From positions 13,096-77,095 of the forward strand of contig CAZNJW010000001.1 in NCBI GenBank assembly GCA_964573455.1: 64,000 nucleotides of DNA. Direction: 5' to 3'. Below are positions 8,793 through 58,296 of this stretch, piece after piece. The notes beneath the pieces are model-generated. The model was not told where the DNA came from. It worked only from the letters and a program-made list of their open reading frames with translations, and did no database searches. The stretch comes from an uncultured Anaeromyxobacteraceae bacterium. Its GTDB lineage: Bacteria; Myxococcota_A; UBA9042; DTJE01. Both the position numbers and the translations under genes were made by a program. Each line of letters opens with the position of its first letter. Positions within the stretch are counted from its first letter, which is position 1.

Positions 8793-9503
8793 TCACAACA
8801 TCAGTGACGCCAGGACATCGTCCAGGGATGCATCCTTCGATGTGCCTTTGTCCGTGGTCTCATCCAGGGTGTCTGCCTCGGCGTCCATTTCCTTGTGGCA
8901 TCCACTGATGGCTCCATCAACGGTCGCGGCGGGGCCACAGTGTTTCAGAACGAAATTCTTACGCAGCCTGGTCAGCGCGGTGCGCTCTGTCCTGCACACG
9001 GTCGCCGCGCTTATCCCCAGAACCTCCGCCACCTCGCGACATGTCATGCCTTCAAAGAACCTGAGTCGGATGATCTCGCGTTCGTCGTGGTCCAGAAAGT
9101 CGAGTCCGTCCAGGTCCGAGCCGAGAAAGCGCGAGAACCTCATCAACATGACCCCTGATTCGATCGAACGGTTCGGACAGTTGTCGTGATCCTTGCGGTA
9201 CTGAATCTGGTCCTGAGGGTCGTCTTCGGTCAGTCTCTCCCTGGATCTGCGGCAGATGTCCCTGACGTGATCGAACATGGCGCCGCTGGCACGTTTTCCT
9301 GCGTACGTCGAAAGCGCGCAACCTCTGTCGGGATCGAATCGCCCGACCGCCTCCATCAATCCCACGAAGCCTTCCTGAAGGATGTCCTCACGGTCGGCGG
9401 GCGACCAGTAGTCGCGCCTGAACCTGGTCGCCAGACGCCTGACAAGAGGAACCAGCGCCGAGAGTGTCGTGATCTGCTGCCGAACCTGATTCGTCGTTTC
9501 CAT
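8793..9503 (-). CDS. RNA polymerase sigma factor, sigma-70 group 3 (FliA/WhiG-like) with a C-terminal Cys/His extension
   Basis: Region 2 (ILQEGFVGLMEAVGRFDPDRGCALSTYAGKRASGAMFDHVR), region 4 HTH (MTCREVAEVLGISAATVCRTER), ~50 aa tail HCGPAATVDGAISGCH. Confidence 0.7.
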   Translation of the reverse strand: METTNQVRQQITTLSALVPLVRRLATRFRRDYWSPADREDILQEGFVGLMEAVGRFDPDRGCALSTYAGKRASGAMFDHVRDICRRSRERLTEDDPQDQIQYRKDHDNCPNRSIESGVMLMRFSRFLGSDLDGLDFLDHDEREIIRLRFFEGMTCREVAEVLGISAATVCRTERTALTRLRKNFVLKHCGPAATVDGAISGCHKEMDAEADTLDETTDKGTSKDASLDDVLASLML

Positions 9504-9674
9504 CTGTCTTTTCCTCCAGGATGATGGGAGGTTCACATTTCAAGAAGCGTGCCTGAACTGAAGCGAACATCTGCCAGACGCGCAGATCCGTCACAACTAT
9601 TCGAATTCTAAAGACAATATGGCCAGCGCCCTGATTTCAACCAAGACTGCGACAGTTGAATTTCGATCCTCTTC

Positions 9675-9695
9675 AAAGGGGGCGTCTCCCCCTTT
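9675..9695. promoter_or_regulatory. GC hairpin (AAAGGGGG-CGTCT-CCCCCTTT) in the divergent intergenic region
   Basis: Perfect 8-bp inverted repeat between the sigma-factor start and the lipoprotein start. No U-tract, so not a canonical terminator. Confidence 0.3.
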
Positions 9696-9845
9696 CGCGG
9701 GGGTTTCTCACCCAGCGGTCGGGGATTTGAAGCAGACCGAGGTTTCAGTGTCGCCCGGGTGCTGGAAATGACTGAGACCAAAGGCTATAATGGCGTCCAA
9801 GTCTTACGACTGGTTTTTCTTCTCTTTGTTTACAGGTGGCTTCGA

Positions 9846-11399
9846 ATGAACAAGCGCTTTCTGCTGGTCTTGCTGACTGCCGTCGCCTTCGCGGGATGTG
9901 GGACAGATCCCAATGTTGACAACGACATCGTTGGCGCGGATGACACGACCGACGAGGATGTGGTCGATCCCCTTGAGGACGTCGTGCTTCCGGATGGCGC
10001 GATCTGCATGCCCGGTACAGGCAGGTGTTCTGCCTCAAATTATCTCGTGTGTAAGGAAGACGGTTCGAACTACGACGTGATCCCCTGCAATGGCGGTTGC
10101 GACGACAGGACGGGCTGTAAAGACCAGCAGACATGCACTCCGCTGACCACCAGATGTAACGACGACGGCACGGTTCAGGTGTGCCTTGGCGACGGTTCTG
10201 AATGGTCCGAGGCGACAAACTGCCCTGAAGGCGAAGTTTGTATTGCTGGCGGCTGCATGACCGAGAGCTGCATCCCCGGCGCCAGTCAGTGCATCGGCAA
10301 CACGCTGGTCTCATGTGCCGGCGATCCGGCGAAATGGGTTGAGCAGGAATGCGGAACCAAGGCGATCTGCTTCAAGGGCGACTGCGTTGAATGTGTCAAC
10401 GACGATCAGTGCGCGCTCGGAAACGAGTGCCTGGACGGGCATTGCACTCCGGTTCCCCTGTCGATCGCCACTCCTTACCTGCCCGAAGGCCAGATCAAAA
10501 TAGCTTACAGCGCGACTCTCGAGGCGATGGGCGGAGTACCTGAGTACACGTGGTCGCTGGTGTCCGGCACAATGCCAACCGGCATCCTGATGTCGAACGA
10601 CGGCGCGATAAGCGGAACCCCGAGCCAGGCCGGCAACTACGAAGTCGTCATCGGCGTGACCGACTCCAAGGGCGCAACGGTGCAGAAGCCCTACGAGATC
10701 ATCATCCACGAGGAAGGTCTCAGCATCATCAGCAAGTCTCCGCTTCCCGACGCCGAGGAAGGCACGGACTACTCGTTCCAGTTCCAGGCGCTCGGTGGAA
10801 AGGCACCTTACGGGTGGATGATTATCGAGGGCGCTCTCCCGGACGGCTTGACTATGTCCTCTGACGGCGCGATCACCGGCATCCCGAACGCGCACGGGGA
10901 TTTCACATTCAAGGTCCGCGCCATCGACATCGATGATCCGCCGTCGTACGACTCCCGCGAGTTCACCCTGCACGTCGCGATCGCGCCGCTGGTGATTTAC
11001 GGCGACCAGGAATTCAACCTGTTCATCACAAAGGCGATCATTCTGCCAGTTATCACCACCGGCATCGGGCTGCCCTACAACGAACAGCTCAAGGCAAAGG
11101 GCGGCGTGAAGCCCTACACGTGGCAGGAATCGCAGATGTCGATGCTGCTCGAGATGCTGATCCCGAAGTCGGGCGTGCCGGAAGGACTGACGCTCAGTTC
11201 CGAGGGTGTCCTGTCAGGCAGGGTCACCAGTGTCGACGAGGCAGTCAAGCTCGACCTCAGTATGATTGGCATGGACTACGTGCTCGAGGGATTCTTCTTC
11301 ATGGCCACGGTGACCGACGCGCAGAACCCTGCCGATTCGGACCAGGCAATCTTCGTCATCCCGACCATTCCGATAGATCTCGGCGGCCTCGGAATCTGA
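9846..11399 (+). CDS. Lipoprotein with myxo-type cysteine-rich repeats and putative Ig (He_PIG/cadherin-like) domains
   Basis: MNKRFLLVLLTAVAFAGCG lipobox. About 5 Cys-rich repeats (C..G.C....C..DG....C..GC). Repeated 'LP.GL.MS.DGAI.G.P' Ig-like segments. Confidence 0.6.
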   Translation: MNKRFLLVLLTAVAFAGCGTDPNVDNDIVGADDTTDEDVVDPLEDVVLPDGAICMPGTGRCSASNYLVCKEDGSNYDVIPCNGGCDDRTGCKDQQTCTPLTTRCNDDGTVQVCLGDGSEWSEATNCPEGEVCIAGGCMTESCIPGASQCIGNTLVSCAGDPAKWVEQECGTKAICFKGDCVECVNDDQCALGNECLDGHCTPVPLSIATPYLPEGQIKIAYSATLEAMGGVPEYTWSLVSGTMPTGILMSNDGAISGTPSQAGNYEVVIGVTDSKGATVQKPYEIIIHEEGLSIISKSPLPDAEEGTDYSFQFQALGGKAPYGWMIIEGALPDGLTMSSDGAITGIPNAHGDFTFKVRAIDIDDPPSYDSREFTLHVAIAPLVIYGDQEFNLFITKAIILPVITTGIGLPYNEQLKAKGGVKPYTWQESQMSMLLEMLIPKSGVPEGLTLSSEGVLSGRVTSVDEAVKLDLSMIGMDYVLEGFFFMATVTDAQNPADSDQAIFVIPTIPIDLGGLGI

Positions 11400-20917: not shown

Positions 20918-22813
20918 TTGCAGGGGCCATCAATGACTCACCCAATACGTAAGGCGGACATTCTGGTCGGCCTGTTGCTGGCGGCGTGCTACTTCGTCAT
21001 GCTGATGTCTACTCTCGACATCGGATTCCCCCGTGACGAGGGGTTCTACTTCAAGGCCGGAGAAGAGTATTCGTACTGGTACGACGACCTCGTGACCAGT
21101 CCGTCCACCGCATTTTCCAAGAAATCCATCAACAAGCATTTCGCCTACAATCCGGAACACCCGGCGCTCCCGAAGATGATGTTCGGGCTTTCCTGGCGGC
21201 TCTTCGGAAAGATGCACGACCCGGTCAAGGAACCGTGGTCGAAGGTCTGGTACCACAAGACCAAGCCGCCGAAACCAATCTTCGGCATCATGTCCGAATC
21301 GACAGCGATGCGCCTGCCGGCGCTCATTCTGAACTCGCTGCTGGTGATGTTCATATTCCTGTTCGGCGTGGAATTCTTCAGCAGACGAGTCGGGTTCGTG
21401 GCCGCCGCCGCATGGATGTTCCTGCCCCATACCTTCTGGCACTCCCACCTGGCGTGCTTCGACATGCCGGTCACCGCGATGTGGTTCCTGGTGGCATGGC
21501 TCTTCCTGAAGGCCACCCCGCCGCTCGAAGAACGCAGGAAGAACCGGGGGCGCACGTGGAAATTCGCGATCGCTGCCGGCGTGGCCTGGGGCCTTTCCAT
21601 GTCGACCAAGCACAATGCCTGGTTTATTCCCGCCGTTTTCGTCATCTGGTACCTCATCGCCCGCTGGGACGAAGTCCTGCCGCGCGATGCGGATGGTCGC
21701 AGAAGGCCGGCCTTCGGCAATATTCCTCCGGCATTCTGGATGATGCTCCTGCTTGGACCACTGGTGTTCTACCTCACGTGGCCCAAGCTGTGGTTCGCCC
21801 CGATCGATCACCTGTCCTTCTATATCGCCCGGCATGCAAAACATGAGTTCTACTGGGCCTACTTCTTCGGTACGCTCCACACGAAGCCGCCGTTCCCGGT
21901 TTCATTTCCGTTCGTCATGTCGGCGATGACCTTGCCAGGGCCGATCGTGCTTTTGTCACTGGCCGGTCTGGGCACGGCGTTCTCGGCATGGATCAAGAGA
22001 CTCCAAGGCAGGGAGTGGAAGATCGCGGTTCCGATTCCCGCAGCCTATCGTGACACCATCCTGTTCGTATTTCTGAATGCGCTCATACCGTTCGCAATCA
22101 TCGCGGCTCCGAACACGCCGATCTTCGGCGGGACGAAGCACTGGCTTCCGGGCGTGGCGTTCCTGATGATTTTCGTCGGAATCGGTTTCGAGCTTGTCGT
22201 CGCGGCCATCGACGGACTTCGCGAGAGATTCAGGCTCCGCTGGGGCAGATCGGCACGGGCCGCCCTCGTGGCGCTTTGTCTTGCGGTCGTGCTGACCCCG
22301 GCGGTGTTCGACACCTTCCACGGCCACACCAACGGCAGCACCTACTACAATGCCTTCTTCGGCGGGTTCGGCGCCATGGGAAGACACGGAATGCAGCGCG
22401 AATTCTGGGGAAACACCGCCTTCTCAGCCCTGCCCTGGCTGAACAGGAATGCACCGAAAAACGCTCAGGTACACTTCCACGACACGGCCTGGGATTCTGT
22501 AAGGATGTACTGGCGAGACGGACTTCTGCGGCGGGACATCAAGCCGCGCTGGGATTATCAGAAGGCCGATTACTTCCTGTTCCACTGGCACAAGGAGTTC
22601 CTCGATCGCGAAGAAACGGGACGCACGGCCATCGGAAGCGACATTCCGGCTTTCGTTGTCGAACAGGACGGAGTGCCGCTGCTGAACGTCTACGAGCGTC
22701 CTCCGCGAAAACCGGCACCGGTCAAGCTTCCTGTCGTCAGACCTGATCGTCCACCCAGGCAGCCGCCTCCCGGAGACCGCGCCAAAGACGCGTCCGGAGG
22801 TAACAACCGATGA
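20918..22813 (+). CDS. Glycosyltransferase family 39 (ArnT/PMT-like) integral membrane protein
   Basis: About 12 TM helices. N-terminal loop motif (DEGFY). Pro-rich C-terminus. Size and topology of a PMT_2/ArnT protein. Confidence 0.6.
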   Translation: MQGPSMTHPIRKADILVGLLLAACYFVMLMSTLDIGFPRDEGFYFKAGEEYSYWYDDLVTSPSTAFSKKSINKHFAYNPEHPALPKMMFGLSWRLFGKMHDPVKEPWSKVWYHKTKPPKPIFGIMSESTAMRLPALILNSLLVMFIFLFGVEFFSRRVGFVAAAAWMFLPHTFWHSHLACFDMPVTAMWFLVAWLFLKATPPLEERRKNRGRTWKFAIAAGVAWGLSMSTKHNAWFIPAVFVIWYLIARWDEVLPRDADGRRRPAFGNIPPAFWMMLLLGPLVFYLTWPKLWFAPIDHLSFYIARHAKHEFYWAYFFGTLHTKPPFPVSFPFVMSAMTLPGPIVLLSLAGLGTAFSAWIKRLQGREWKIAVPIPAAYRDTILFVFLNALIPFAIIAAPNTPIFGGTKHWLPGVAFLMIFVGIGFELVVAAIDGLRERFRLRWGRSARAALVALCLAVVLTPAVFDTFHGHTNGSTYYNAFFGGFGAMGRHGMQREFWGNTAFSALPWLNRNAPKNAQVHFHDTAWDSVRMYWRDGLLRRDIKPRWDYQKADYFLFHWHKEFLDREETGRTAIGSDIPAFVVEQDGVPLLNVYERPPRKPAPVKLPVVRPDRPPRQPPPGDRAKDASGGNNR

Positions 22814-23715
22814 GAAAGACTTCCTGGCTCCTCATATCCATCGGTCTTTTGATTCCGATAGCCTCGCTCGTTTACTTCGGCATGGACCTTTTCTATGTGC
22901 AACGCGCTCCGGACACCACGGACTGGCAGGAAGCGGCACGGGTGGTCCATGAAGGGTGGAAGGAAGGCGATCTTGTCGTGTTCTCCCCCCAGTGGGCTCA
23001 GGGCGCTTCACCATACCTGAAGGGTCTCAAGGTCGACACGGCCGAAAATCCTGACTGGTACGAAGCGTCAAAAGCCAGTCGGATATGGGTCATCGGTTCG
23101 ATGGACGGGTTCGATCCCGAACCGCCCGATGGATGGAAGACATTGTCCGAGACAGCAGGCAGGAAGGTGTCGGTCGAGCTGTGGCAACCACCATCGGGCA
23201 GGGAACTGACATACAGTCTCCTGGACAATATCGATGACGCCGTGGTTTCGCGAATCCATCCGAAACGACGCGAAATCTGCTCGAATCTGAAGGACTCGAG
23301 GTGGTATTGCGGAAAGGTTCACTCGTGGCTCTTCGTAGGCCATTCCAGAAAAGACATCGCCGGCCGGGTAAGGGACGTGATCTGGGCTCACGCCATCGAT
23401 CGCACGGTGGTTGAGGCGGTCTGGCCGAAGGTGCCGGGCGATGGAACCCTCACGGTACGCTGGGGTCTGACGCAACGCGCAGCCGAGGCCGCCGAGGGCA
23501 AGCCGACGAATTTCAAGGTCTTCGTGAAAGGCAAAGTGGTTCTTGAAGACACGCTGGACGTTGACGAACACACGTGGCACACGATTGATATACCTATCAA
23601 GGGTTCTGAACCTTCCGAGGTCAAGTTCCAGATTTCCTCGCCAGACGCGCAATCCAGGCAGGTCTGCTTCACCGCGGATCTCTGGCGCTCGAAAGCCGGC
23701 ACAGACTTTTTATGA
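22810..23715 (+). CDS. Membrane-anchored hypothetical protein coupled to the GT39 gene
   Basis: N-terminal TM helix. ATGA start/stop overlap with the GT39 gene. Confidence 0.4.
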   Translation: MRKTSWLLISIGLLIPIASLVYFGMDLFYVQRAPDTTDWQEAARVVHEGWKEGDLVVFSPQWAQGASPYLKGLKVDTAENPDWYEASKASRIWVIGSMDGFDPEPPDGWKTLSETAGRKVSVELWQPPSGRELTYSLLDNIDDAVVSRIHPKRREICSNLKDSRWYCGKVHSWLFVGHSRKDIAGRVRDVIWAHAIDRTVVEAVWPKVPGDGTLTVRWGLTQRAAEAAEGKPTNFKVFVKGKVVLEDTLDVDEHTWHTIDIPIKGSEPSEVKFQISSPDAQSRQVCFTADLWRSKAGTDFL

Positions 23716-23786
23716 TTCCCGGCGTCGATATCAGCTAGAATCACTGACAGAGCCGTCGGAACACATCAACCGGATGGTGCGCTGAC

Positions 23787-24644
23787 ATGACATACAGAAT
23801 CTTTCTTACGTCGCTGGTCCTCATGTCCGTGCTGACGGTTCTGCCGCCACGCGTCGGAACCGCACGGGACTACACACCTGACACATCTTCATTCTTCAAC
23901 GTCTGCAATGGTGGCGGCGAGTGCACGCCGGGCGTGAACAAGGCGGGATTCTCGGACTACATCACTCAGATGAGTGAAGCACTTGGCCCCGCTTTCATGG
24001 GCCCCGCCAACACACTCGGCTTCAAGGGATTCGAGCTGACGCTTAACACCAGCTTCACCCCCGTTCAAGCCAACAGTGAAGTCTGGACCGGGTACGGCGG
24101 AACCCAGCCCGGCGTGGCCCGAAACCCGGGAACGCTGATGTACGCAAACCAGCTGCGTTTCCGCAAGGGGCTGCCATACAGCATCCAGATCGGCGCCTCG
24201 GTGACGCACCTTTACGAAAGCTCGCTGTGGGGAATCGGACTGGATCTGTCGTGGAGTTTCGTGGAAGGGTTCAAACGGGCGCCGGACGTCGGTCTGGTGG
24301 TTTCGTTCGGAACCGTACTCGGAATGACCGACATACAGACCTTCCAGTTGAACGCGGCCCTTATAGTGTCCAAGTCATTCTCTGTCGCAGGTCTCTTCTC
24401 TTTCGAGCCTTACGTCGCCTATAACATGATGTTCGTGATGGCCGGCACCCACGTCACGTCGCAGTGGTCCCCGGACGGCTACGGCGGACAGTTCGCGATC
24501 GACCCGCAATACATCCTGCGGCACCGCGTCGAAATCGGCATGAACGCCTTGATCGAGAACTTCCTGATCGGCGGTGGCATGACGGTCGATGTGCAATCGG
24601 CCAAGGTCATGGGCGCGATCAAGGTCGGCGTCAGGTTCTGGTGA
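23787..24644 (+). CDS. Secreted putative outer-membrane protein
   Basis: Signal peptide, C-terminal ...KVGVRFW aromatic terminus. Confidence 0.4.
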   Translation: MTYRIFLTSLVLMSVLTVLPPRVGTARDYTPDTSSFFNVCNGGGECTPGVNKAGFSDYITQMSEALGPAFMGPANTLGFKGFELTLNTSFTPVQANSEVWTGYGGTQPGVARNPGTLMYANQLRFRKGLPYSIQIGASVTHLYESSLWGIGLDLSWSFVEGFKRAPDVGLVVSFGTVLGMTDIQTFQLNAALIVSKSFSVAGLFSFEPYVAYNMMFVMAGTHVTSQWSPDGYGGQFAIDPQYILRHRVEIGMNALIENFLIGGGMTVDVQSAKVMGAIKVGVRFW

Positions 24645-24654: not shown

Positions 24655-25962
24655 TCACGGCTCCGGGCGCACGCCCGATTCCCCGTACCTGACCCTGTAC
24701 GACCTCGACAAACCTATGCACGAATCGGAGTGACGACATCCGGAGCAAGCCGGGACGAGTTCATGTCCAAAAAGGTCTGCGCGGCGAAGATCGGCTCTTG
24801 CGTGACTTCTTAAAGCGGAAGGAACCGCGCAAATCGGAAAGTCGGCTATCGACAGGCCTGCTCCGGCGGCAGCCTGTTCCAGCCTGGGACCCGCCGCCTC
24901 AAATGCCGATCTGACCTCCCCGATTTCAGGGGTCACATCGCCAAGAATTTCATCATGCCGGGCGCAATCCGAAATGAGAGATCGAATGGTCACATCAAAA
25001 TCGAAATGAAGCAGCATGTCCAGCACCGAAAACAGTTCAGGCACTGCCCTCCTGGTCATAATGAACTGACCATTCACCCGAAGCGGCAATCTGGAGATAT
25101 TCCGCAAGGCCCGAACCATGCGAACAAAGGCACCCGGCGTTCCCGCGACCGCATCATGAACTTCGGCCGAGGCGCCAAAAACGGACGTCGATATCTTTTG
25201 AACGCCAGGCAGACCCGCGACGGCATCCGCGACCGATGCGCTGGCGAGCCTGCTGGGAGGAATCAAAAGGTGAATCGGACAGCCGCTGGCATCCGAGATT
25301 ACCTGCAATATCGCCCCCAGATGCCTGTGGCCCAAGAGGTCATCCGCATCGAGGCCGAAAGTCGACATCTGACCATGAGCTCTGGCCGGACGAACAATCC
25401 TGTCGGCAAGGCGACAAACCAGATCGAGGTCCCGATCCTGATCAACTGCGTTCCAGATCTGTTTATTAACCGGACAGAAAGCGCAATTCTGGACGCAGCT
25501 CGAAGACAGATTAAGATGAAAAGAGAGGTCGTCACCGCACCCAACCGATGCCAGCATCTCGGATGTGATGTCACCCCCCTGGGAAGCTCTGGACAACGAC
25601 CAGCGCCTTACTGGAGGTTTCGTGCCCGAAAAGCCTGATTCAAACCAGTCAGCCCCGGCGAGCCTCGAGTGGATCGTCTTTTCCAGAGAGTCACAAGCTG
25701 CCACGAACCCCTTGTTTTTCTTCAAAAAGCTACGGATCGGCCAGATTTCAACAAACGGCGCATCATCGCGACATCCATGACCACAGAAGGCGTGCGCCGC
25801 CAGCCCGATCGGGAACATGTGTTCTTCCGATATGACCCGGCCGAACACCTCAATCCCGCAATCCTGCCTCAGGTAAGATTCGGCAATGTACACGCCGGGA
25901 ACAGACAGAAACTGAAGCAGCTCACGCGGAGAAGGAAGCTTGTTCATCGGAGCCTCCGTCAA
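24655..25962 (-). CDS. Radical SAM enzyme of unknown function (435 aa)
   Basis: CVQNCAFCPV (CxxxCxxC) at about residue 175. ~150-aa unique N-terminal domain. C-terminal Cys cluster (CSGCRHSDSC), possibly an auxiliary Fe-S cluster. Last gene of the BMC-P operon. Confidence 0.6.
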   Translation of the reverse strand: MTEAPMNKLPSPRELLQFLSVPGVYIAESYLRQDCGIEVFGRVISEEHMFPIGLAAHAFCGHGCRDDAPFVEIWPIRSFLKKNKGFVAACDSLEKTIHSRLAGADWFESGFSGTKPPVRRWSLSRASQGGDITSEMLASVGCGDDLSFHLNLSSSCVQNCAFCPVNKQIWNAVDQDRDLDLVCRLADRIVRPARAHGQMSTFGLDADDLLGHRHLGAILQVISDASGCPIHLLIPPSRLASASVADAVAGLPGVQKISTSVFGASAEVHDAVAGTPGAFVRMVRALRNISRLPLRVNGQFIMTRRAVPELFSVLDMLLHFDFDVTIRSLISDCARHDEILGDVTPEIGEVRSAFEAAGPRLEQAAAGAGLSIADFPICAVPSALRSHARADLRRADLFGHELVPACSGCRHSDSCIGLSRSYRVRYGESGVRPEP

Positions 25963-25969
25963 GCCCGGG

Positions 25970-27385
25970 TCAGTTTCTGAGGGAGTTCATCGGGGCCGGG
26001 ATACGGCCACCTCGCGCGATGAAGGTGCTTACGTCAAATTTCTTCGTGTCCATGACGATCAGTTCGCCAAGCAACCCGCCCAGATCAACTGTGTCCCCGG
26101 GCTTCGAACCCGGAATCGGGATCAGACGGCAGGCCGTAGTCTTGTGATTGATGACACCAATCGCCAGTTCATCGGCAATTATCGCCGCAATGGTCGAAGG
26201 AGGCGTGTCGCCGGGAAGCGCGACCATGTCCATGCCGACTGAACAGATCGCCGTCATGGCCTCGAGTTTGTCCAGCGTCATGGCGCCAAGCCGGGTCGCG
26301 TCGACCATGCCGGCGTCCTCGCTGATTGGAATGAAGGCGCCTGAAAGCCCGCCAACCGACGACGATGCCATGACGCCTCCCTTCTTGACTGCCTCGGTCA
26401 GAAGATAAAGCGCGGCCGTAGTGCCGTGGGCACCTACACGCTCGATTCCCATCGCTTCTATGATCCTGCCGACCGAATCGCCTTCCGCCGGCGTCGGCGC
26501 CAGCGACAGGTCCAGAACGCCAAAGCGAACCGGCGGACCAAGTCTGGCCACGACTTCGCGACCAATCAGTTCACCGGCACGCGTGATCTTGAAGGCGGTC
26601 CGCTTGATAACCTCGGACAGAGACTGACAGTCCATCAAGCCGGGTTCAAGACGCTTCTGGCGTTCGATGGCCGCAAGCACGACGCCCGGGCCCGATACGC
26701 CGACATTGATGACGACATCGGGTTCACCCACGCCATGCATCGCGCCGGCGATGAAAGGATTATCCTCGGGCGCGTTGGCGAAGACCACCAGTCTGGCACA
26801 TCCGGCGCCGTGCTTTGTCTTGGCGGCCGTCTCGGCCATCACTTCGCCCATCATCGCCGTCGCTTCAAGGTTGATTCCGGTCCTTGAAGACGCCAGATTG
26901 ACCGAGCAGCAAACCCTGGTAGTCGAAGCCAGCACGTCGGGCAAGCTACGCATCAGCATGGCTGAACCTGACGTGGCCCCTTTCTGGACCAGTGCCGAAA
27001 AGCCCGCGATGTAGTCGATCCTGCACTCGACCGCCGCCTTTTCAAGAGCGGCTGCAGCCGCGAGATAGGATTCACGCGGAGCTCCCTCGAGAACCAGCGC
27101 CATCGGGGTGACAGACACGCGCTTGTTCACGATCGGTATGCCGTACATGTTCTCGACCTCGGCGGCCGCGTCGACCAGCCCTCCCGCATGCGAGACGACC
27201 ATGTCGTATATGTACTTGGAGACCGTCTTCGGATCCTTGCCCGGACACCCAAGCATGCAGATGCCCATCGTGACCGTGCGGATATCAAGATGCTCCGCCT
27301 CGACCATTCTTATGGTTTCAGAAATTTCTTCTGGTCGGTAAATCAAGGGTTCCTCCGATCCACCGTAACGGACCGGCCACCGCAT
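25970..27385 (-). CDS. DUF711/UPF0210 family protein
   Basis: Near full-length similarity to UPF0210: [96 protein letters not shown]. Confidence 0.75.
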
Positions 27386-27401
27386 CGCGAGGCCGTCCTG
27401 C

Positions 27402-28028
27402 TCAGATCCTGTGCATCGCCTTCAGGATGGCCTCGTGCATCACCATCATTTCCGCTCCGACCGCACGTCCTGCCACCTCAACCTTGTTCTTGAACTCCTT
27501 GAACGTCATTCCGCCCTTGAGCGTGTCCAGATTAACCACGAAGATCATCGAGAAGAAGTTCGCAACGATGGTCTGGCTTATATCCTGGATGTCGGTGCCA
27601 CAGTCGGAGATCGCCGACGTCAGCGCTGCGGCGACCCCGGGCTGGTTCCGACCGGTTGCGACCACAATGGCGCGATTCGGCTCACCGGCCTGATGTGCCG
27701 CAATCCTTGCAGCGGCACCATCCTCGGCGAGTGGCGAATACGACGGAATGAAGGAGCCCCCGCGGTCGCCCTGCGAAAGCGCCCGCACAACCTCTTCGGC
27801 AATGACCTTGCGGAGCCGATCATCCGACGGCCCGCGGCTGCCACTGACAGGATCACGCGGGATCGACTCGGCCGATGGAACCGAACCGCTGGCATACACC
27901 AGACGGATCCCCTGTCTGGTCGCGTATTCCCGCGCCAGCGGCGTCACGATCATTCCGGAGTCCACAGCCAGAACGCCCTTCGAAGCGAGCGCATCGACAT
28001 CCTTCTCGGTGATAATCTTCCTGACCAC
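27402..28028 (-). CDS. ACT-domain protein (UPF0237-like) with EutQ-N-terminal-like motif and EP-like amphipathic helix
   Basis: C-terminal 90 aa match UPF0237 (DISQTIV..FSMIFVV...[11 protein letters not shown]). N-terminal [38 protein letters not shown] resembles the EutQ N-terminal motif. The linker contains [17 protein letters not shown]. Confidence 0.6.
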
Positions 28029-28037
28029 ATCAACCTC

Positions 28038-28397
28038 TTATTCTGTCTGACCGGCTATCGCCGATTCATCAACCCTGAAGCGATCGACAATGGCTACGAC
28101 CGACGCGTCGACCGGAAAATGGGGAGCCTCGCCGACTGCAAGGCCCGGTTCAAGCCCGACGCGCCCCGCATGTCCGTAAGCGATAACGACGTCCTCGCCG
28201 GGACCGGCGCCCAGCAGATCAGCCACCACGACGCCATCGGTCAATCCCTGGGGCGGTACGCCGGCGTCCGCGGTCATTCCGTCGGAAGCGCGCAGGTCGT
28301 CAAGGTTGTATGGACGGACCAGCAACAACCGCAGACCTTCCAGTCCCTTCCATTTAACCGAGGACCAGACGCAACCAACGACCCTTGCCATGAACAT
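28038..28397 (-). CDS. Bacterial microcompartment vertex protein (BMC-P, EutN/CcmL/PduN family)
   Basis: ARVVGCVWSSVKWKGLEGLRLLLV, VVVADLLGAGPGEDVVIAYGHAGR and PVDASVVAIVD align to conserved EutN blocks. ~115 aa. Confidence 0.75.
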   Translation of the reverse strand: MFMARVVGCVWSSVKWKGLEGLRLLLVRPYNLDDLRASDGMTADAGVPPQGLTDGVVVADLLGAGPGEDVVIAYGHAGRVGLEPGLAVGEAPHFPVDASVVAIVDRFRVDESAIAGQTE

Positions 28398-28463: not shown

Positions 28464-30209
28464 TCATCGTCTGATGAGTTTAATCGCCCTCTGCAGCAGG
28501 GATTCCTGCTTCCGCTTGAAACTAACCTGCCCGAGGCCGGTGGCGGACTTCGAGCGCTTCTTGAACGATTTGGCGTCCCGGTTGTCAGGATCAAGGGCCA
28601 GCACCTTCCTTATGTGGGACTGCGCCGTCTCAAGATCACTCTTCCTGACCATGTACTCGGCCGCCAGCAGATGCGCCGGGATCAGATCGGGATCGAAACT
28701 GAACGCCACGTCCAGCAGGCTCTCAATGGTCTCGTAGGTGTCGTCCTCGGGTGCCATCGCCAGCAGAGCCATTCCCTGAGAACAGAGATATTCCGGCTCC
28801 TCCTGGTCGAGGTTTTCGGCGGCCTCGAAATATTCAATAGCCTCGGATGGTTTACGTAATTCCAGCAACGAAACGCCCTGACGCCACAGCCCGCGCGCCT
28901 CGAAGATCGCCGCGAGCTGGGCTTCGAGGCCGGGCGTCGAAATACTCTGTGAACGGTTGTAGGCAACACGCAGACTGAGATCACCGAACATCTCACCGAC
29001 TCGATTGATGCGGTCGATCAGCTCGCGAAGGGCCTTCATCGACCTCTGGCTGACTCCGCCTTCGTAACGCGACGGAGAATACCTGCGACGCGCTCGAAGC
29101 TGGGCCATGCGGACTGCCGAAAGCCTGGCATCGGACCCGATCTCGAGCAGATCGTAGTGGTTCAAGCGCGAGGCCCTCTCCAGTTCAGAGACAATGGCCC
29201 TGTCGAGCTCCGGGTCCACCAGTATCTGTTCCGACACGTTGGCCGGTTTGTCCTTTCCGGTACTGGTGAACCCATGGATGGAACCTTTATCGTCCATCAT
29301 CAGGTAATCGTCACGTCGGTCATTTTGCGCGCTGAAGTTGACGTCGGAATCGATATCAAGTTCCAGATCAATGGCTTCGTCGCGGGTCTCGGGGGCCGAA
29401 ACGGCGGCGACGTGAACCGATGCCGGCCCAACGTTGAACTCGTCGAGGTCGATTTCGTCAACCGGCCGTGATACGGTCGAGACGGGTTGTGGGCCTGGTG
29501 TGCCCGCGCCGGAACTGGCCGAAACCAGCCCGCCCGCGACCATGAATCCAAAAAGAATCCTTAGATTGACCTCGTCGGACAGAAGTGCCGGACTCAAAGG
29601 CGGGCAGTTGCCGCTGACAAGCTCGGCAACAAGTGGAACACCGCGAAAATGAGCCCTGGCGTGTATCAGACAACCGGGACTGATCGAATCGGTGACTTTG
29701 GCGAAAGGCCCAAGCCTGCCGACAATCGCGCGCATTCCGGCCAAATCCATGTTTCTCTGAACGGCGGTGAACAGCTCAGCACACATGTCGACCGCCTCGG
29801 TCGGGGAGGCCGGCCCGACATCGGGGGCCTTTTGAAAACGCCAGGCGCGAACAGGTACCGGCAGAAGGATGTCGACGACGTTACGGACATACGAATTCAG
29901 AAGACGGGGTGCGTCCTCATCGCGGACTACGTTGGCCGCAATCAGAAGCGGAAGTGTAGCGATTGAGTCGGCGACTTGACGCTCTTGAACCATGCCGGAC
30001 TGAACAAGGAATTCCCCGAATGAAAGGCCGTCGATGTCGGTTCCAACGTCAACAGCCACGCCACGCTTGTGCAGGAATGTCACTCTACCGTCTGGAAAAT
30101 CAAGACTGAGGCGGCCGGATTCACCTTTCTGCTCGATGGCGCGAAACAGGCGGTAAAGCCCCCAGGCTGGAATCACTCTATCCACGAGGCACCCTCGATG
30201 ACGCCGCAA
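28464..30209 (-). CDS. DUF4388-domain protein with degenerate J-like segment and TPR repeats
   Basis: N-terminal RLSLDFPDGRVTFLHKRGVAVDV (DUF4388-like). HYDLLEIGSDARLSAV J-like region lacking HPD. C-terminal TPR-like helices. Confidence 0.45.
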   Translation of the reverse strand: MRRHRGCLVDRVIPAWGLYRLFRAIEQKGESGRLSLDFPDGRVTFLHKRGVAVDVGTDIDGLSFGEFLVQSGMVQERQVADSIATLPLLIAANVVRDEDAPRLLNSYVRNVVDILLPVPVRAWRFQKAPDVGPASPTEAVDMCAELFTAVQRNMDLAGMRAIVGRLGPFAKVTDSISPGCLIHARAHFRGVPLVAELVSGNCPPLSPALLSDEVNLRILFGFMVAGGLVSASSGAGTPGPQPVSTVSRPVDEIDLDEFNVGPASVHVAAVSAPETRDEAIDLELDIDSDVNFSAQNDRRDDYLMMDDKGSIHGFTSTGKDKPANVSEQILVDPELDRAIVSELERASRLNHYDLLEIGSDARLSAVRMAQLRARRRYSPSRYEGGVSQRSMKALRELIDRINRVGEMFGDLSLRVAYNRSQSISTPGLEAQLAAIFEARGLWRQGVSLLELRKPSEAIEYFEAAENLDQEEPEYLCSQGMALLAMAPEDDTYETIESLLDVAFSFDPDLIPAHLLAAEYMVRKSDLETAQSHIRKVLALDPDNRDAKSFKKRSKSATGLGQVSFKRKQESLLQRAIKLIRR

Positions 30210-30321: not shown

Positions 30322-31086
30322 TCAATAGTATTTTTCCCCGGAATCGATGTCCACGACTATCGCGGAAACGGTCATCTCCGGAACCATCTGAAACGTCTCC
30401 GAAACGGCGACGCCGATCCGGGAAGCCCCGAGCATGGCGCAGATCTTCTCCTGATTGGACAGATCCGGACAGCATCTGTATCCAGGCGAGAAGCGCACGC
30501 ACGGACGAAACCCCTCCTGTCCAGGCGTCAGTCCGCACATGGCCGACGCGACCCTGAGATGAACCTCACCGGCAAACGCCTCCGCCATGGCCGCCGCCAT
30601 CCCGTGAAAAAGATGATAATCCTCGAAACGTCCCTGCTCTCTCAGCTCGGCCTCATGCCTGGCCACGCCATGGCCAAGTGTCGAGACGAACCATCCGGCG
30701 CGACCGGCCGGCGCCATGGTTCCGTCCTCCGGCACGGGAGGAAAGAGATCCGTAAGAGAGTGGCCCTGGTGGTTACGCGCGAAATGAATCAACACGGCAT
30801 CATCGCGGGAATCATTTTCGTCCGGGATCAGAAGGTCGTTATCGATGGAGAATGCGGGGGCGACCATAACCACCGCGGCCGGCTCGAAAATGCCCTCCTG
30901 GCACGCGGAAACCAGCCTGTTCATGAACATCGGTTCCAGTTCGACCTTGATCCGCCTGTTCCATTCGTCCTGATTCACATCGCGGCGCCTGAAACGCCAG
31001 TGCTGCAGAAACAAGGACTTGCGATCGACAAGCCGACCGAGCGCCAGCGGATCGATGTCCGATATCACCATGGCACGCATAGGCAC
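30322..31086 (-). CDS. Methionine synthase reactivation (AdoMet-binding activation) domain, stand-alone ORF
   Basis: RFSPGYRCCPDLSNQEKICAMLG...ETFQMVPEMTVSAIVVDIDSGEKYY matches the MetH activation-domain C-terminus. Only 3 nt downstream of the MetH core. Confidence 0.7.
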   Translation of the reverse strand: MPMRAMVISDIDPLALGRLVDRKSLFLQHWRFRRRDVNQDEWNRRIKVELEPMFMNRLVSACQEGIFEPAAVVMVAPAFSIDNDLLIPDENDSRDDAVLIHFARNHQGHSLTDLFPPVPEDGTMAPAGRAGWFVSTLGHGVARHEAELREQGRFEDYHLFHGMAAAMAEAFAGEVHLRVASAMCGLTPGQEGFRPCVRFSPGYRCCPDLSNQEKICAMLGASRIGVAVSETFQMVPEMTVSAIVVDIDSGEKYY

Positions 31087-31089
31087 ACC

Positions 31090-33651
31090 TCACGATAACG
31101 GACGTTGCCCGTTCACCACCTGATTGAGTGCCCTGAGCCCCTCGAAAGCATCCCTGCAGTAGAAAACCTGACCACTGTAGGACGTGCGAAGCTCACGTTC
31201 GACAAACCCACCGTCGAGAGCCGCGCCTCCAACCAGAACCGGCAGCCTTACTCCAGCGCGCTCCATGACCTGCAGGTTGTCCTTCATCGCCATCGTGGAC
31301 TTCACCAGCAGCCCGGACATCCCGATGGCATCTGCATTCTCGCGCCGCGCCGCCGCCATGATCTCCTCGACCGTCCGTTTGACCCCCAGATTGACCACGC
31401 GAAACCCGTTGTTCGAGACGATTATGTCGACCAGGTTCTTACCAATGTCGTGAACGTCCCCGACAACCGTGGCTAAGACCAGCGTGCCTCTTGGCTCGGT
31501 CCCTGCCGCTGGAAGACGTGGCCGAAGCATGTCGACCGCCGTCTTCATGACCTCGGCGGAGCGCAGGACGAACGGAAGCTGCATCCGCCCGCTGCCGAAC
31601 ATCTCGCCGACCTCACGCATAGCGTCCAGGAGCACGTCGTTGATGATCTGAATGGCATCCATTTCGCCAAGCAGGTTATCAAGTGCCGTATCAAGCCCGA
31701 TCCGATCACCGCGAATCACGGCCCTGCGGCACCGCTGAACGGGGCTGAGGCTGGAAACGTCATCCGCGTTGACGTCCGCGGATGCTCCCACCTCAAACAT
31801 CTCAATGAAGGAGTGAAGGGGATCCCTTCCGCCAGATGAATCATTGTTGACAAGCGCTTCGGCCGCCACGCGCAGTGTCTCCGGGATCGAATCCACGGGC
31901 ATGATGCGACTGGCATTAACGATGGCGGCGCCAAGACCGGCCTTCATGCAGTGATCGAGCATCACGCTGTTGAGAACCCGCCTCGCCCCGGGGTTCAATC
32001 CGTAGGAACAGTTGCTGACGCCAAGGCTGATCCTTACGCCCGGATGCCGGTCACGAATGATTCGAATCGCGTTGATGGTCTCCAGCGCCGAAGTCCTGAG
32101 CGCGGCATCACCGGACGCCATCGTGAATGTCAACGGGTCCACGAAGATGTCGGCGGGGTCGAAACCATGCCGATTCACGAGCAGCCCAATCAGTCGCGAT
32201 GCCACCTCGACCTTGCGTGCCGCTGTCATCGCCATCCCGACCTCGTCGATCGTGAGCGCCACGACCGCGGCGCCATGCCTGCGGGCAATCCCGGCGATCG
32301 CGTCAAGCCTGCTTCCTCCGTCCTCGAGATTCACCGAATTCACGACCGCCCTTCCCGGGCATCTCATCAGCGCGGCTTCGATCGCGGCCGGTTCAGTTGA
32401 GTCCACCATCACGGCCGCGTCCAGGAACCTGGTCGCGACCGGAACGAACCTGACGACATCGGCCGGTTCGTCGCGGCCGGCCACGGCCAGACAGATATCA
32501 AGGACGTGCGCGCCCTCGTCGACCTGTTCACGACCAACCTGAAGCATGGCTTCCACATTCCCGTCGACCAGGTGGTTTCGGAAGGCCCTGCTGCCGTTGG
32601 CGTTCGTTCGTTCGCCAATGATGAGTGGCCCGGGAGTCTGCTCCATGGCAACTGCGGAAAACAACGACGAAAGCATGTCGAGCCTGTTCGGCCGGTTTCG
32701 CGACGGCTCAAGATCGGCCACGGCTTCGGCAAGCGCCCTGATGTGGTCTGGCGATGTGCCGCAGCACCCACCCACAAAAGAAACCCCCAGTTCCGTCACG
32801 AACGACCTTACCTGTGCCGCGAACCCGGCCGGGGTCAACCTGTAGACCAGCCGACCTCCGTCATTCTCCGGAAGGCCGGCGTTCGGAAGGGCCGCCAGAG
32901 GCAGCGGGGATTCGCCGGCAAGCCGCTTCAGCACACCGTACATCGCATCAGGACCGGTCGAACAGTTCAACCCGAATACCGCCACGCCAGGCATTGATGA
33001 CAGTGTAGCGAGCGCCGCTATCACGTCGGTGCCCAGCAGCATCCTCCCGCCACAGTCGACCGTGACCTGCGCGAAGATCGGAACCTCGCGGCCGCTGTCA
33101 TCCATTGCACGGCGAAGACCAAGGACAGCGAGACGGGCCTGAAGCGGATCCTGGCACGTCTCCACCTGGAACATGTCGACACCTCCAGCCAGCAGGGCGG
33201 CGCCCTGCTCATGGTAGGCATCAAGCATCGCTTCGGGCTCGACCTGCCCCAGCGAGGGGAGCCTGGAACCAGGTCCGATCGACCCGGAAACCCAACGCGG
33301 GCGTCCCGGCGCCGATGCGCGATCGGCCGCCTTGCGGGCAATCTCGGCGGCGGCCAGGGACAGTTCGGCCGCGCGGTCGGCAATGCCGTACTCATCAAGC
33401 ACGATCCGGTTGGCACCAAAGGAATTGGTCTCGATGATGTCCGCACCGGCATCCAGGAAGGTACGGTGAATCCCGGCGATCATGTCCGGCCTGGTCAGGC
33501 ACAGCATCTCGTTAAGTCCGTCGACCGGGCCGAAATCAGCGGCCGTGGGAGCCGCCTTCTGGATCTCGGTGCCCATCGCACCGTCGATCACGACGATTCG
33601 CTCACGGGCCGCGGCAAGGATGACACTTGGCAACCGCATCTGGCACCTCAC
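31090..33651 (-). CDS. metH: Cobalamin-dependent methionine synthase core (Hcy-binding, pterin-binding, B12-binding domains), lacking the activation domain
   Basis: 853 aa. Homocysteine S-methyltransferase N-terminus. B12-binding GDVHDIGKNLV (DxHxxG). Confidence 0.85.
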   Translation of the reverse strand: MRCQMRLPSVILAAARERIVVIDGAMGTEIQKAAPTAADFGPVDGLNEMLCLTRPDMIAGIHRTFLDAGADIIETNSFGANRIVLDEYGIADRAAELSLAAAEIARKAADRASAPGRPRWVSGSIGPGSRLPSLGQVEPEAMLDAYHEQGAALLAGGVDMFQVETCQDPLQARLAVLGLRRAMDDSGREVPIFAQVTVDCGGRMLLGTDVIAALATLSSMPGVAVFGLNCSTGPDAMYGVLKRLAGESPLPLAALPNAGLPENDGGRLVYRLTPAGFAAQVRSFVTELGVSFVGGCCGTSPDHIRALAEAVADLEPSRNRPNRLDMLSSLFSAVAMEQTPGPLIIGERTNANGSRAFRNHLVDGNVEAMLQVGREQVDEGAHVLDICLAVAGRDEPADVVRFVPVATRFLDAAVMVDSTEPAAIEAALMRCPGRAVVNSVNLEDGGSRLDAIAGIARRHGAAVVALTIDEVGMAMTAARKVEVASRLIGLLVNRHGFDPADIFVDPLTFTMASGDAALRTSALETINAIRIIRDRHPGVRISLGVSNCSYGLNPGARRVLNSVMLDHCMKAGLGAAIVNASRIMPVDSIPETLRVAAEALVNNDSSGGRDPLHSFIEMFEVGASADVNADDVSSLSPVQRCRRAVIRGDRIGLDTALDNLLGEMDAIQIINDVLLDAMREVGEMFGSGRMQLPFVLRSAEVMKTAVDMLRPRLPAAGTEPRGTLVLATVVGDVHDIGKNLVDIIVSNNGFRVVNLGVKRTVEEIMAAARRENADAIGMSGLLVKSTMAMKDNLQVMERAGVRLPVLVGGAALDGGFVERELRTSYSGQVFYCRDAFEGLRALNQVVNGQRPLS

Positions 33652-52300: not shown

Positions 52301-53503
52301 TTCGACCATCTTTTTGGCGGTCTTGATCGTCTGCGCGTAGCCGCGTTCTTCAAGCTTGTTGAAGATGAACGGCTTAAACAGCTCCAGCGCCATCTTCTTC
52401 GGAAGTCCGCACTGGTGAAGCTTCAGTTCCGGACCGACGGTGATGACCGAACGGCCGGAGTAGTCGACGCGCTTTCCGAGCAGGTTCTGGCGGAACCGGC
52501 CCTGCTTTCCTTTCAGCATGTCGGACAGGGACTTCAGCGGACGACGGTTCGTGCCGGTGATCACCTTGCCGCGGCGGCCGTTATCGAACAGGGCGTCCAC
52601 CGCCTCCTGGAGCATGCGCTTCTCGTTCCGGATGATGATCTCCGGGGCGTTCAGCTCCATCAGCTTCTTCAGGCGGTTGTTCCGGTTGATTACGCGACGG
52701 TAGAGATCGTTAAGGTCCGATGTCGCGAAACGGCCACCGTCAAGGGGCACCAGGGGGCGCAGGTCGGGCGGAAGGACCGGCAGATTCTTCAGGATCATCC
52801 ACTCGGGCCTGTTGCCGGAATCGCGCAGCGCCTCCACGACCTTCAGACGCTTGGAGAGCTTCTTAAGCTTCGCGTCGGAATTCGACTCGCGAACCTCGGC
52901 TCGAATCTTGTCCGCCTCGGTGTCGACATCGATCCGCTCGAGGAGGGTGCGGATGGCCTCGGCGCCCATACCGGCCGTGAAAGCGCCGTCGCCGTACTTC
53001 TCAAGAAGTTCCTCGTACTTTTCCTCGGAGATGACCTGGGTGACCTCGAGTTCGTCAACCACGCCCGGGTCGATCACGACGTATGCGACGCAGTAAAGAA
53101 CCTTCTCGAGGTCCTTGAGCGTAATGTCGAGAACGTTGCCGATGCGGCTGGGAATGCTCTTCAGGAACCAGATGTGGGCCACCGGCGAAGCGAGTGTGAT
53201 GTGACCCATCCTCTCGCGCCGAACCTTGCTCTGGATCACCTCGACGCCACACTTCTCACACACGACGCCACGATGCTTCAGGCGCTTGTAACGGCCGCAA
53301 TTGCATTCGTAGTCCTTTACGGGCCCGAATATCTTGGCGCAGAACAGGCCGTCGCGCTCAGGCTTGAACGTGCGGTAGTTGATCGTCTCGGGCTTCTTGA
53401 CCTCGCCGTAGGACCACCCGAGGATGGTCTTCGGTGAAGCAAGCGACACCCGCATGCCTTCGACCAGGAGCGGATCCCTTGGCCTCTCGAAAACGGTGAA
53501 CAT
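49400..53503 (-). CDS. rpoC: DNA-directed RNA polymerase subunit beta'
   Basis: NADFDGDQM active site, zinc-finger Cys, length ~1370 aa. Confidence 0.97.
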
Positions 53504-53553
53504 GTCCTTCACGGCCACCCCCAAATACAAGCATCAACAACGATGCCGTGGAG

Positions 53554-56500: not shown

Positions 56501-57687
56501 AAATAGGCGCGCGCCTGCTCGGGGCTGGTCGGGTCGCCCGGCCTCTGGCGCCGGTAGATCTCGACTGCCGCGTCGAGCGGATTCTCGACCTTGTCGGCCA
56601 GCAGAGTGTTGCGCAGATACGGACCAGCGGTAACGCCGTCGATGTGCAGAATGCGAATCTCGCGTTCCTGTCCGCCATCGCGCAGTTTGGCCAGCATCTT
56701 CTCGGTGATCTCGTCGTTGCACTCGAAGATGATCTCGCCGGTTTCCTCGTCGACGATATCGTCACCGAGCACGGAACCGACCAGGTCTTCATCCGACATC
56801 ACCAGCTCGGTGATTCCCGCCTCGATGACCTTCTTGATGCGCATCCGGCCAAGCTTGTCGCCCTTGCGAATGATCACCTTTCCGGTCGCTGGATCGACGA
56901 TGTCAACCTTCAGGCGCTGGCCCTCGAGTGTGTTCGGATCCATGGCGAGGATGATCTTGCCGTCCCTGGTCAGCCTCACGGACACGGTGCTGTAGAAGCG
57001 CTCGAGGATCTCGTTGCGGGTGAAGCCCAGTGCCTTCAGAAGCACTGTGGCATGAACCTTCCGTTTGCGGTCGATCCTGACCCACATGATATCCTTGTGG
57101 TCGAACTCGAAGTCGACCCAGGACCCGCGGTTCGGGATGATCCTGGCGGAATACAGCAGCTTGCCGGATGCGTGCGTGCGGCCCTTGTCGTTCTCGAAGA
57201 AAACGCCGGGCGAACGGTGGAGCTGGCTGACGACTACCCGCTCCGCTCCGTTGATGATGAACGTGCCCTGCTCGGTCATCAGCGGAATTTCGCCGAAGTA
57301 GACTTCCTGCTCCTTGATCGCGCGGACTTCACGGACCGCGGTCTCGGGCTCGACGTCCCACATGACCAGCTGGACAGTTACCCTCATCGGCGCCGCGAAG
57401 GTGATGCCGCGCTGGCGACACTCCTCGACGTCATACTTGGGCTCGTCCAGGACGTATCCCTTGTACTCCAGCGACGCGGTCTTGTTGTAATCCGTTATCG
57501 GGAAGATGCTCTTGAAGATGCCGTGCAGTCCGAAGTCGCCGCGCTTTTCGTTTGGCGTGTCGGCCTGGAGGAAACGCTCGTAGGAATCCTTCTGCACCCT
57601 GATCAGGTCAGGCACCACAGTGGCTTCAAGAATCCTGGCGAAGCTGCAGCGGGTTTTCAGCCCTTTGGGTTTCGTGGTAACACTCAT
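53554..57687 (-). CDS. rpoB: DNA-directed RNA polymerase subunit beta
   Basis: Conserved rpoB blocks throughout, 1377 aa, immediately upstream of rpoC. Confidence 0.97.
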
Positions 57688-58235: not shown

Positions 58236-58296
58236 TTTGAAAACTCCTTTTCGTGGTCCGCCGCTTCAACGCGGCAACATTCCAAAAACCTGCCTG

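Follow-up and report, generated by a model that had tools for sequence, protein, structure and literature searches.

RESULTS

A vertex-type microcompartment gene heads a compact minus-strand locus

The window analyzed here is a stretch of 64,000 nucleotides (nt; 64 kb) from contig CAZNJW010000001.1 of an uncultured Anaeromyxobacteraceae bacterium. At positions 24655 to 28397, its minus strand carries four closely spaced open reading frames (ORFs), which encode a paralogue of the vertex proteins of bacterial microcompartments (BMC-P), an ACT-domain protein, a DUF711/UPF0210 protein, and a radical S-adenosylmethionine (SAM) enzyme (Table 1). A preliminary description of this stretch had treated the four as one tight operon; all four ORFs are found where it placed them, and profile and structure searches agree with the families that it gave to their products, including the EutN/CcmL-family membership of the first, which it had set as a test of its proposal. 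The spacing of 7 to 16 nt that it reported holds for the gaps between the BMC-P and ACT genes (9 nt) and between the ACT and DUF711 genes (16 nt); the third gap is 7 nt if the radical SAM ORF is read from its TTG, and is more likely 22 nt, from an ATG start. A promoter/terminator scan of the region returned no more sites than were obtained with shuffled sequence, and an Rfam scan returned tRNAs only, the operon being preceded by no riboswitch match. Metagenomes of anaerobic digesters and the like contain identical or nearly identical contigs, as do metagenome-assembled genomes (MAGs) labeled Myxococcota; close relatives are labeled Anaeromyxobacteraceae.

Table 1 Genes at the locus and the adjoining upstream gene (window coordinates)
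Feature	Coordinates	Strand	Product and matches
BMC-P (EutN/CcmL-family) paralogue, subfamily P4	28038-28397	-	119 aa; PF03319
ACT-domain adaptor protein (putative), UPF0237-like	27402-28028	-	208 aa; ACT_6, NF001220, PDB 1ZPV
DUF711/UPF0210 protein	25970-27385	-	471 aa; PF05167, NF003700, PDB 2HA9
Radical SAM enzyme, lineage-specific	24655-25947	-	430 aa from ATG; ORF reaches TTG at 25962
TPR/weak PatA_N (DUF4388) protein	28464-30209	-	66 nt upstream of BMC-P gene, same strand

The BMC-P paralogue forms a conserved subfamily that retains the hexamer-contacting motif

The product of the first gene matches PF03319 (EutN_CcmL) with 62.2 bits against a cut-off of 25. A profile of its subfamily, here called P4, matches 11 solved BMC-P sequences, of which the best is CcmL 7WKC (8.6e-12); the BMC-P of the HO type (Haliangium ochraceum), 5V74, follows at 5e-11. 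The scores fall short of the equivalog cut-offs for CcmL (44 versus 125 bits) and EutN (19 versus 118 bits), and the P4 protein is therefore an orthologue of neither. In its AlphaFold2 (AF2) model, which is of moderate confidence (pLDDT 68), the protein is predicted to have the BMC-P fold: BMC-P chains account for 42 of the 43 top Foldseek matches in the PDB (GrpN, HO BMC-P, CcmL, EutN, and CsoS4), with target-normalized TM-scores of at most 0.75.

The P4 subfamily gave 256 matches and is 33 to 36% identical to the HO main-locus BMC-P, and a 34-sequence alignment shows a mean column identity of 66% together with a subfamily-specific insertion of ~20 residues. Residues 63 to 69 (28191-28211) read GAGPGED, in which G63, A64, G65, G67, E68, and D69 are invariant in the 34 members. 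In solved shells, GAGxGE mediates the contact of the pentamer with the BMC-H hexamer (PMC13370225), and its retention hints that the P4 proteins may be competent for shell assembly.

The ACT protein carries microcompartment-type targeting elements

The second gene product is organized, in order, as an N-terminal module, a flexible linker, an amphipathic helix, and an ACT domain. The ACT domain (27405-27674) is recognized by ACT_6 (9.5e-9) and, over residues 119 to 208, by alignment with PDB 1ZPV (E = 4e-10). NF001220, the UPF0237 equivalog model, scores 64.9 bits against a cut-off of 74 and spans residues 118 to 208 only, and the protein has ~117 extra N-terminal residues relative to the ~90-residue stand-alone UPF0237 proteins. 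Judged by its sequence, it appears to be a UPF0237-like domain in a distinct architecture.

Residues 3 to 43 (27900-28022), i.e., the N-terminal module, give weak matches to TIGR02536 (6.8e-5), EutQ (3e-3), and PduM (4e-3), and the regions shared are the C terminus of TIGR02536, the N terminus of EutQ, and the C terminus of PduM. When the N-terminal modules of 26 orthologues were compared with NCBIfam, TIGR02536 was matched by 20 of them, PduM by 16 and by 12, EutQ by 3, and no other family was hit; with Pfam, the same 26 modules matched PDU_like in 11 cases, plus two stray matches of a single member each. Whole-family cut-offs are missed (full-length EutQ, 17 bits versus 193) because only the module is common to these proteins. 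The module occurs in most ACT orthologues of the loci described below, and the agreement among its matches points to homology with the shell-associated module found at the EutQ N terminus and the PduM and TIGR02536 C termini. For EutQ, experiments have shown that helices H1/H2 (residues 9 to 41) attach to the Eut shell and that encapsulation requires them, residues 1 to 99 are enough to target green fluorescent protein into the organelle, and the region homologous to the module binds BMC-H/T proteins (EutM and EutL) in Salmonella (PMC12487888).

The amphipathic helix (27768-27827), which resembles an encapsulation peptide (EP), has the highest helical hydrophobic moment of the whole ACT protein. 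It precedes the ACT domain in every orthologue of these loci, across all locus types, and in orthologues without the N-terminal module it is situated at the extreme N terminus. It resembles the extension at the N terminus of a BMC aldehyde dehydrogenase (AldDh) of the HO type from a myxobacterial MAG (RIRELVERVVERLSQ against a 16-residue counterpart). The module matches and the conserved helix together bear out the EutQ-N/EP-type tagging that had been suggested for this protein from the window alone.

Two further features of these proteins were recorded. In the AldDh of an HO-type main locus on a myxobacterial metagenome contig (L102, 10635-12113), the extension SLDEARIRELVERVVERLSQ ends in LSQ, as does the window helix. 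Polyangia-type ACT proteins have a CxxC motif just before the ACT domain (e.g., IDFCQMCLEQERSR and DVCAACAEAERRRG), as in locus L015 (12160-12777) and also in L016, L063, L065, L066, L078, and L089; the window clade is without this motif.

The DUF711 protein closely matches its pneumococcal homologue

The third product scores 556 bits with PF05167 and 654 bits with the equivalog model NF003700 (cut-off, 440), and it matches Streptococcus pneumoniae SP0239 (PDB 2HA9) over its full length with E = 2e-146. This likeness argues that the reaction would be the same as in organisms without microcompartments, relocated in Myxococcota. ECOD places DUF711 among the ten-stranded beta/alpha barrels, in the superfamily of ribonucleotide reductase (RNR) and pyruvate formate-lyase (PFL), and no radical glycine has been recognized in DUF711 (PMC4390871). 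The C-terminal tail (25970-26030), F-I-x-R-G-G-R/Q-I-P-A-P-x-x-S-x-x-N, is conserved with SP0239, and the motifs TAICSVG(L/M)DM and RVC(C/S)SVN are likewise common to both proteins. A conserved cysteine and the Gly-Gly near the C terminus may be catalytic candidates, given the RNR/PFL-type barrel.

BMC-P, ACT, and DUF711 genes form a conserved trio in Myxococcota

A scan with the P4 profile, with one genome taken per species, found 126 loci, of which 80 were kept with 10-kb flanks and scored for neighborhood content by tblastn and ORF clustering. Nearly all of the 80 are labeled Myxococcota or belong to MAGs labeled "Deltaproteobacteria." Downstream sequence of at least 5.5 kb was available for 55 loci, and in 44 of these the ACT and DUF711 genes directly follow BMC-P; the distance from the end of BMC-P to the start of DUF711 was 444 to 919 nt in 51 of 57 loci. 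More specifically, the window clade has a single BMC-P gene, and its trio is flanked by metH-TPR on the upstream side and by a PMT glycosyltransferase cluster on the downstream side; in another clade, the upstream gene is PLD-like; and the Polyangia-type loci contain three to four divergent tandem BMC-P paralogues (28 to 47% identical among themselves and 34 to 42% to an HO main-locus BMC-P), preceded by two genes without a Pfam family. The latter encode a Lys-rich helical protein of ~117 aa (F3; 32 loci) and a lipoprotein of ~340 aa (F4; 22 loci). The flanking genes are thus wholly different between clades, and therefore selection, not inherited order, keeps the trio together. The conserved unit consists of the first three genes only, i.e., BMC-P, ACT, and DUF711. 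The link between UPF0237/UPF0210 and a BMC shell gene, raised in the preliminary description for this one locus, proves to be non-random and much stronger than could be recognized there, being kept in dozens of Myxococcota species.

Several observations on the wider set of loci are given here. Multi-BMC-P blocks, with no BMC-H within 10 kb, lie at 9138-10324 of locus L015, at 9132-10302 of L016, and in ~50 more loci (L038 to L098), and 11 loci have such a block without ACT/DUF711. F3 and F4 were considered as cryptic shell proteins and rejected, as they have no Pfam family and no BMC-H similarity. In seven loci, the TPR gene and the single BMC-P gene are separated by a gene for a 79-aa stand-alone Lrp/AsnC ligand-binding (RAM) protein (e.g., L024 9545-9784, L025 9670-9909, L026 1000-1239, and L027 1515-1754); the window is without it.

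The radical SAM gene is a lineage-specific neighbor

The ATG at position 25947 is the likelier start of the fourth gene, since it is preceded 5 nt upstream by GGAGG and is the start used by gene callers. The CxxxCxxC core is CVQNCAFC (25474-25497), and C373, C401, C404, and C410 (24718-24831) make up an auxiliary four-cysteine site; the cluster-binding cysteines are invariant in all homologues. The AF2 model (pLDDT 89.7) has the radical SAM fold, the Pfam score lies just below threshold, and the motif and the predicted fold together place the protein in the radical SAM superfamily. An N-terminal beta-rich domain of ~130 aa has no family match. The nearest structures are the SPASM/twitch enzymes SkfB, anSME, MoaA, ChlB, and SuiB, with PFL activase at rank 12; the best curated family, HxsC (TIGR03977), reaches 40.3 bits against a cut-off of 267.9, and relatives of the protein likewise stay below it. 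As the flanking gaps are 22 and 10 nt, the latter separating its stop codon from the end of the convergent gene, there is no room for a precursor gene. With its invariant cluster-binding cysteines, this is a real, functional-looking orphan enzyme. The unique N-terminal domain and the extra cysteine cluster that had been described for it are thus both present, and its length is probably 430 rather than 435 aa.

Among the 80 species loci, the radical SAM gene is present in just 4, the nearest relatives of the window; it is also found on a few metagenome contigs of the window clade. Sister lineages have no radical SAM gene at this place; there, DUF711 is followed directly by the same downstream genes or by FHA-domain genes. 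Between sister species, the radical SAM proteins are 34 to 43% identical, versus 89 to 97% for DUF711, making this the fastest-evolving gene of the neighborhood; similarly, its GC content at third codon positions (GC3) is the lowest nearby (0.61, versus 0.66 to 0.74 in its three operon neighbors). Both features are consistent with recent acquisition or with relaxed or diversifying selection. A search of 1.84 billion representatives yielded ~8 full-length relatives and 17 matches below 1e-30. The gene for one full-length homologue has an ABC1 kinase gene on one side, itself preceded by aspS, and a gene for a short-chain dehydrogenase/reductase (SDR) on the other; around a partial-length homologue, DUF711, ACT, and BMC-P genes are all absent over 8 kb. 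At the junction between DUF711 and the radical SAM gene, the promoter/terminator scan detected nothing resembling a terminator, and the latter gene is probably cotranscribed with the trio. Nevertheless, it is not a conserved member of the module, and its adjacency is incidental. The preliminary description had made it a partner in the module and had suggested gene-neighborhood comparison across Myxococcota as a check; that idea is not supported, given its presence in 4 of 80 loci, its absence from sister lineages, and the stand-alone homologues elsewhere. A role as a glycyl-radical (PflA-type) activase of DUF711 was also considered, and it was rejected on the 4-of-80 distribution and the SPASM/twitch-type structure.

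PF03319 is the only shell-protein class at these loci

Searched by tblastn with PduA, EutM, CcmK2, HO BMC-H (a query checked to be identical to PDB 5DJB), and HO-type BMC-T, the 64-kb window gave no BMC-H or BMC-T gene, in agreement with the preliminary description. A satellite locus is defined as having one shell-protein class only (PF03319 or PF00936), with the main locus elsewhere in the genome (PMC4207490). PF03319 is the only such class in the window, and the 98 related loci have no BMC-H/T within 10 kb. In BMCs of the HO and FRAG types, scattering of shell genes is normal and BMC-P multiplets are familiar (PMC8217296), which makes a main locus out of view plausible. The status of a satellite locus is unproven for the present case.

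Neighboring genes in the window

The TPR/DUF4388 gene upstream of BMC-P shows synteny only in the single-BMC-P clade (family F7, 13 loci); it belongs to the context and not to the conserved core, and the transcript may begin with it. On the downstream side of the operon, a convergent plus-strand block (20918-24644) travels with the module in the same clade and comprises a PMT-family glycosyltransferase (20918-22813) and two family-less proteins (22810-23715 and 23787-24644). On the minus strand at 30322-33651 is a split methionine synthase, the parts of which, an 853-aa protein with the Hcy, pterin, and B12 domains (31090-33651) and a 254-aa activation-domain protein (30322-31086), are encoded by genes separated by 3 nt; in more distant relatives, a fused MetH of 1,136 aa takes the same syntenic place. 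Positions 49400 to 63308 hold an ordinary housekeeping cluster, with genes assigned by size and order only: two ORFs of ~1,376 aa fit rpoB/rpoC, a run of short ORFs fits ribosomal proteins, and a 396-aa ORF (61607-62797) fits tuf. The Rfam scan located five tRNA genes at 61199-63308.

DISCUSSION

A proposed shell-targeted ACT-DUF711 cargo module

We propose, with a probability of about 0.5, that the locus contains an undescribed shell-targeted ACT-DUF711 cargo module with a dedicated vertex paralogue, i.e., a three-gene Myxococcota unit to which the fourth gene does not belong. Under this proposal, the C-terminal ACT domain would pair with DUF711, as in the ubiquitous two-gene UPF0237-UPF0210 module, and the N-terminal EutQ-type H1/H2 module, together with the amphipathic helix, would dock the complex on the inner face of the shell. 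The coencoded BMC-P would be the dedicated pentamer, or vertex, of that shell, and the DUF711 reaction would run inside or at a protein organelle, the facet proteins (BMC-H/T) of which would be encoded elsewhere in the genome. The radical SAM gene would be a functionally independent insertion, gained by one small clade at the junction of DUF711 with the convergent gene downstream.

Several observations weigh against this proposal. In 11 of the 55 loci, BMC-P genes have no ACT/DUF711 downstream. We know of no microcompartment involved with DUF711 in S. pneumoniae; the protein of the window is nearly unchanged relative to that of S. pneumoniae, and encapsulation is therefore not needed for DUF711 chemistry. 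Individual N-terminal modules give weak E-values, from 1e-6 to 1e-3, and the likeness of the helix to an EP is one of pattern only. In the window and within 10 kb of the 98 related loci, 1.57 Mb in all, tblastn found no BMC-H, BMC-T, or BMC-type AldDh. Two main loci of the HO type, found in other myxobacterial MAGs and with the gene order BMC-Tdp, BMC-H, BMC-P, AldDh, BMC-T, contain neither ACT/DUF711 nor, by a hidden Markov model of the module, any protein with the N-terminal module; both come from assemblies other than those known to carry the trio. Likewise, among the at least 8,000 matches listed by a BMC-H search of 5.8 billion proteins (identity of at least 82%), no genome was seen to hold both the trio and a BMC-H gene.

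These absences lend themselves to a different explanation, in which BMC-P has been repurposed without a shell: in lineages without BMC-H, EutN-fold pentamers would act as a scaffold, cap, or regulator that binds ACT and DUF711, and in Polyangia-type loci F3 and F4 may be co-actors. The lack of BMC-H/T in the 1.57 Mb of loci searched would be expected on this account, as would the four divergent tandem paralogues accompanied by the conserved, Pfam-less F3 and F4, and the unusual conservation of the subfamily (66%), with its own invariant residues and insertion, also fits. Yet the invariant GAGxGE is the very element that contacts hexamers in known shells (PMC13370225), the ACT module is homologous to the EutQ region that binds BMC-H/T (PMC12487888), dispersed shell genes are normal for HO/FRAG-type BMCs (PMC8217296), and an absence over 10 kb tells little about the rest of a large genome. 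We therefore regard a shell-less role as unlikely, although it is a serious contender. A bolder version, distinctly less probable in our estimation, would make DUF711, a family that occurs in both bacteria and archaea, the defining enzyme of a novel microcompartment-type assembly in myxobacteria that is built around dedicated BMC-P paralogues, possibly without BMC-H facets, in which ACT would be a EutQ-like shell-cargo linker and the orphan radical SAM enzyme would act on one protein in the window clade.

Two other explanations concern the membership of the module. All four genes could form one radical module, with the radical SAM enzyme as a partner that, for example, installs a radical or a modification on the DUF711 barrel, the whole being encapsulated with the help of BMC-P. 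The close packing of the genes, the good Shine-Dalgarno sequence of the radical SAM gene, the junction free of terminator-like sites, the invariant cluster-binding cysteines, and the placement of DUF711 in the ten-stranded barrel superfamily of RNR and glycyl-radical enzymes (PMC4390871) all speak for such a module, and the DUF711-radical SAM adjacency lasts within the clade despite an identity of 34 to 43%. Nevertheless, we hold it to be highly improbable: the gene is present in 4 of 80 loci, and sister lineages with the same flanks do without it; homologues stand alone beside unrelated genes (aspS, ABC1 kinase, and SDR); the nearest structures are SPASM/twitch enzymes, with PFL activase only at rank 12, and HxsC scores 40 bits against a 268-bit cut-off; no radical glycine is recognized in DUF711 (PMC4390871); and the gene is the fastest evolving, with the lowest GC3. 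Conversely, the trio could reflect nothing but inherited order, a BMC-P gene having come to stand beside a housekeeping ACT-DUF711 pair with which it has no functional link. ACT and DUF711 form a self-sufficient pair in many organisms without microcompartments, and the 11 of 55 loci with a BMC-P block and no such pair fit this view. It is the least probable of the explanations considered, as the adjacency spans class-level divergence while all other neighbors change, and neutral synteny leaves the BMC-specific targeting sequences on the ACT protein unexplained.

Significance and relation to known systems

UPF0210/DUF711 and UPF0237 are widespread and have solved structures, and they are still without a function. 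Our literature search found no functional study of either family, only rare mention of DUF711, and no paper that connects microcompartments with DUF711, UPF0237, or ACT proteins of any kind. Neither of the two BMC catalogues (PMC8217296 and PMC4207490) mentions DUF711, ACT-domain, or radical SAM cargo in its main text, and the accessible part of the supplementary files of Sutter et al. (PMC8217296) holds nothing relevant on DUF711/UPF0210 or the ACT families (pfam05167 and pfam13740). The individual genes thus belong to known families, and their combination appears to be new. If the proposed cargo module is real, the trio would give UPF0210/DUF711 and UPF0237 their first cellular context, would supply a concrete candidate cargo for the enigmatic dispersed myxobacterial BMCs (HO and FRAG types), and would be a second natural example of the EutQ-type linker architecture. 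Should BMC-H prove to be absent from the genomes, BMC-P proteins would for the first time be known to work without a canonical shell.

Glycyl-radical enzyme microcompartments (GRM), with their radical SAM activases, share with the window the arrangement of an RNR/PFL-superfamily barrel enzyme beside a radical SAM gene and a BMC shell gene. In contrast to GRM loci, DUF711 has no recognized glycyl-radical motif, the radical SAM enzyme is neither activase-like nor conserved with the module, and no BMC-H or core of AldDh and phosphotransacylase (PTAC) lies near the window locus. The radical SAM enzyme itself resembles the HxsC-type and SPASM/twitch maturases (TIGR03977; SkfB and anSME) in its CxxxCxxC core and C-terminal auxiliary cysteine cluster, and differs from the HxsC type in its unique N-terminal domain of ~130 residues and in having no adjacent precursor-peptide gene or Hxs partner.

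The S. pneumoniae pair SP0238/SP0239 (1ZPV and 2HA9) has the same gene order, with ACT upstream of DUF711, and both of its proteins are clear homologues of those in the window. Unlike SP0238, the ACT protein of the window is ~120 residues longer at its N terminus and carries BMC-type targeting elements, and a BMC-P gene stands in front of the pair. With EutQ, the linker of the Salmonella Eut system (PMC12487888), the ACT protein has in common an H1/H2-type module, a flexible linker, a helix, and a C-terminal globular domain, which in EutQ is a cupin acetate kinase and here is an ACT domain. The second helix of the ACT protein may bind the EPs of cargo proteins, like EutQ H3/H4, or may itself be an EP.

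The closest parallels at the level of the locus are the satellite and fragmented BMC loci of the HO type (Haliangium ochraceum) and the FRAG type (PMC8217296 and PMC4207490). There, too, PF03319-type shell genes stand by themselves, away from BMC-H, and are accompanied by an enzyme with EP-like tags. The P4 proteins are a subfamily separate from the HO main-locus BMC-P, and the Polyangia-type multiplets resemble the "BMC-P triplet" of those systems, with up to four paralogues here instead of three.

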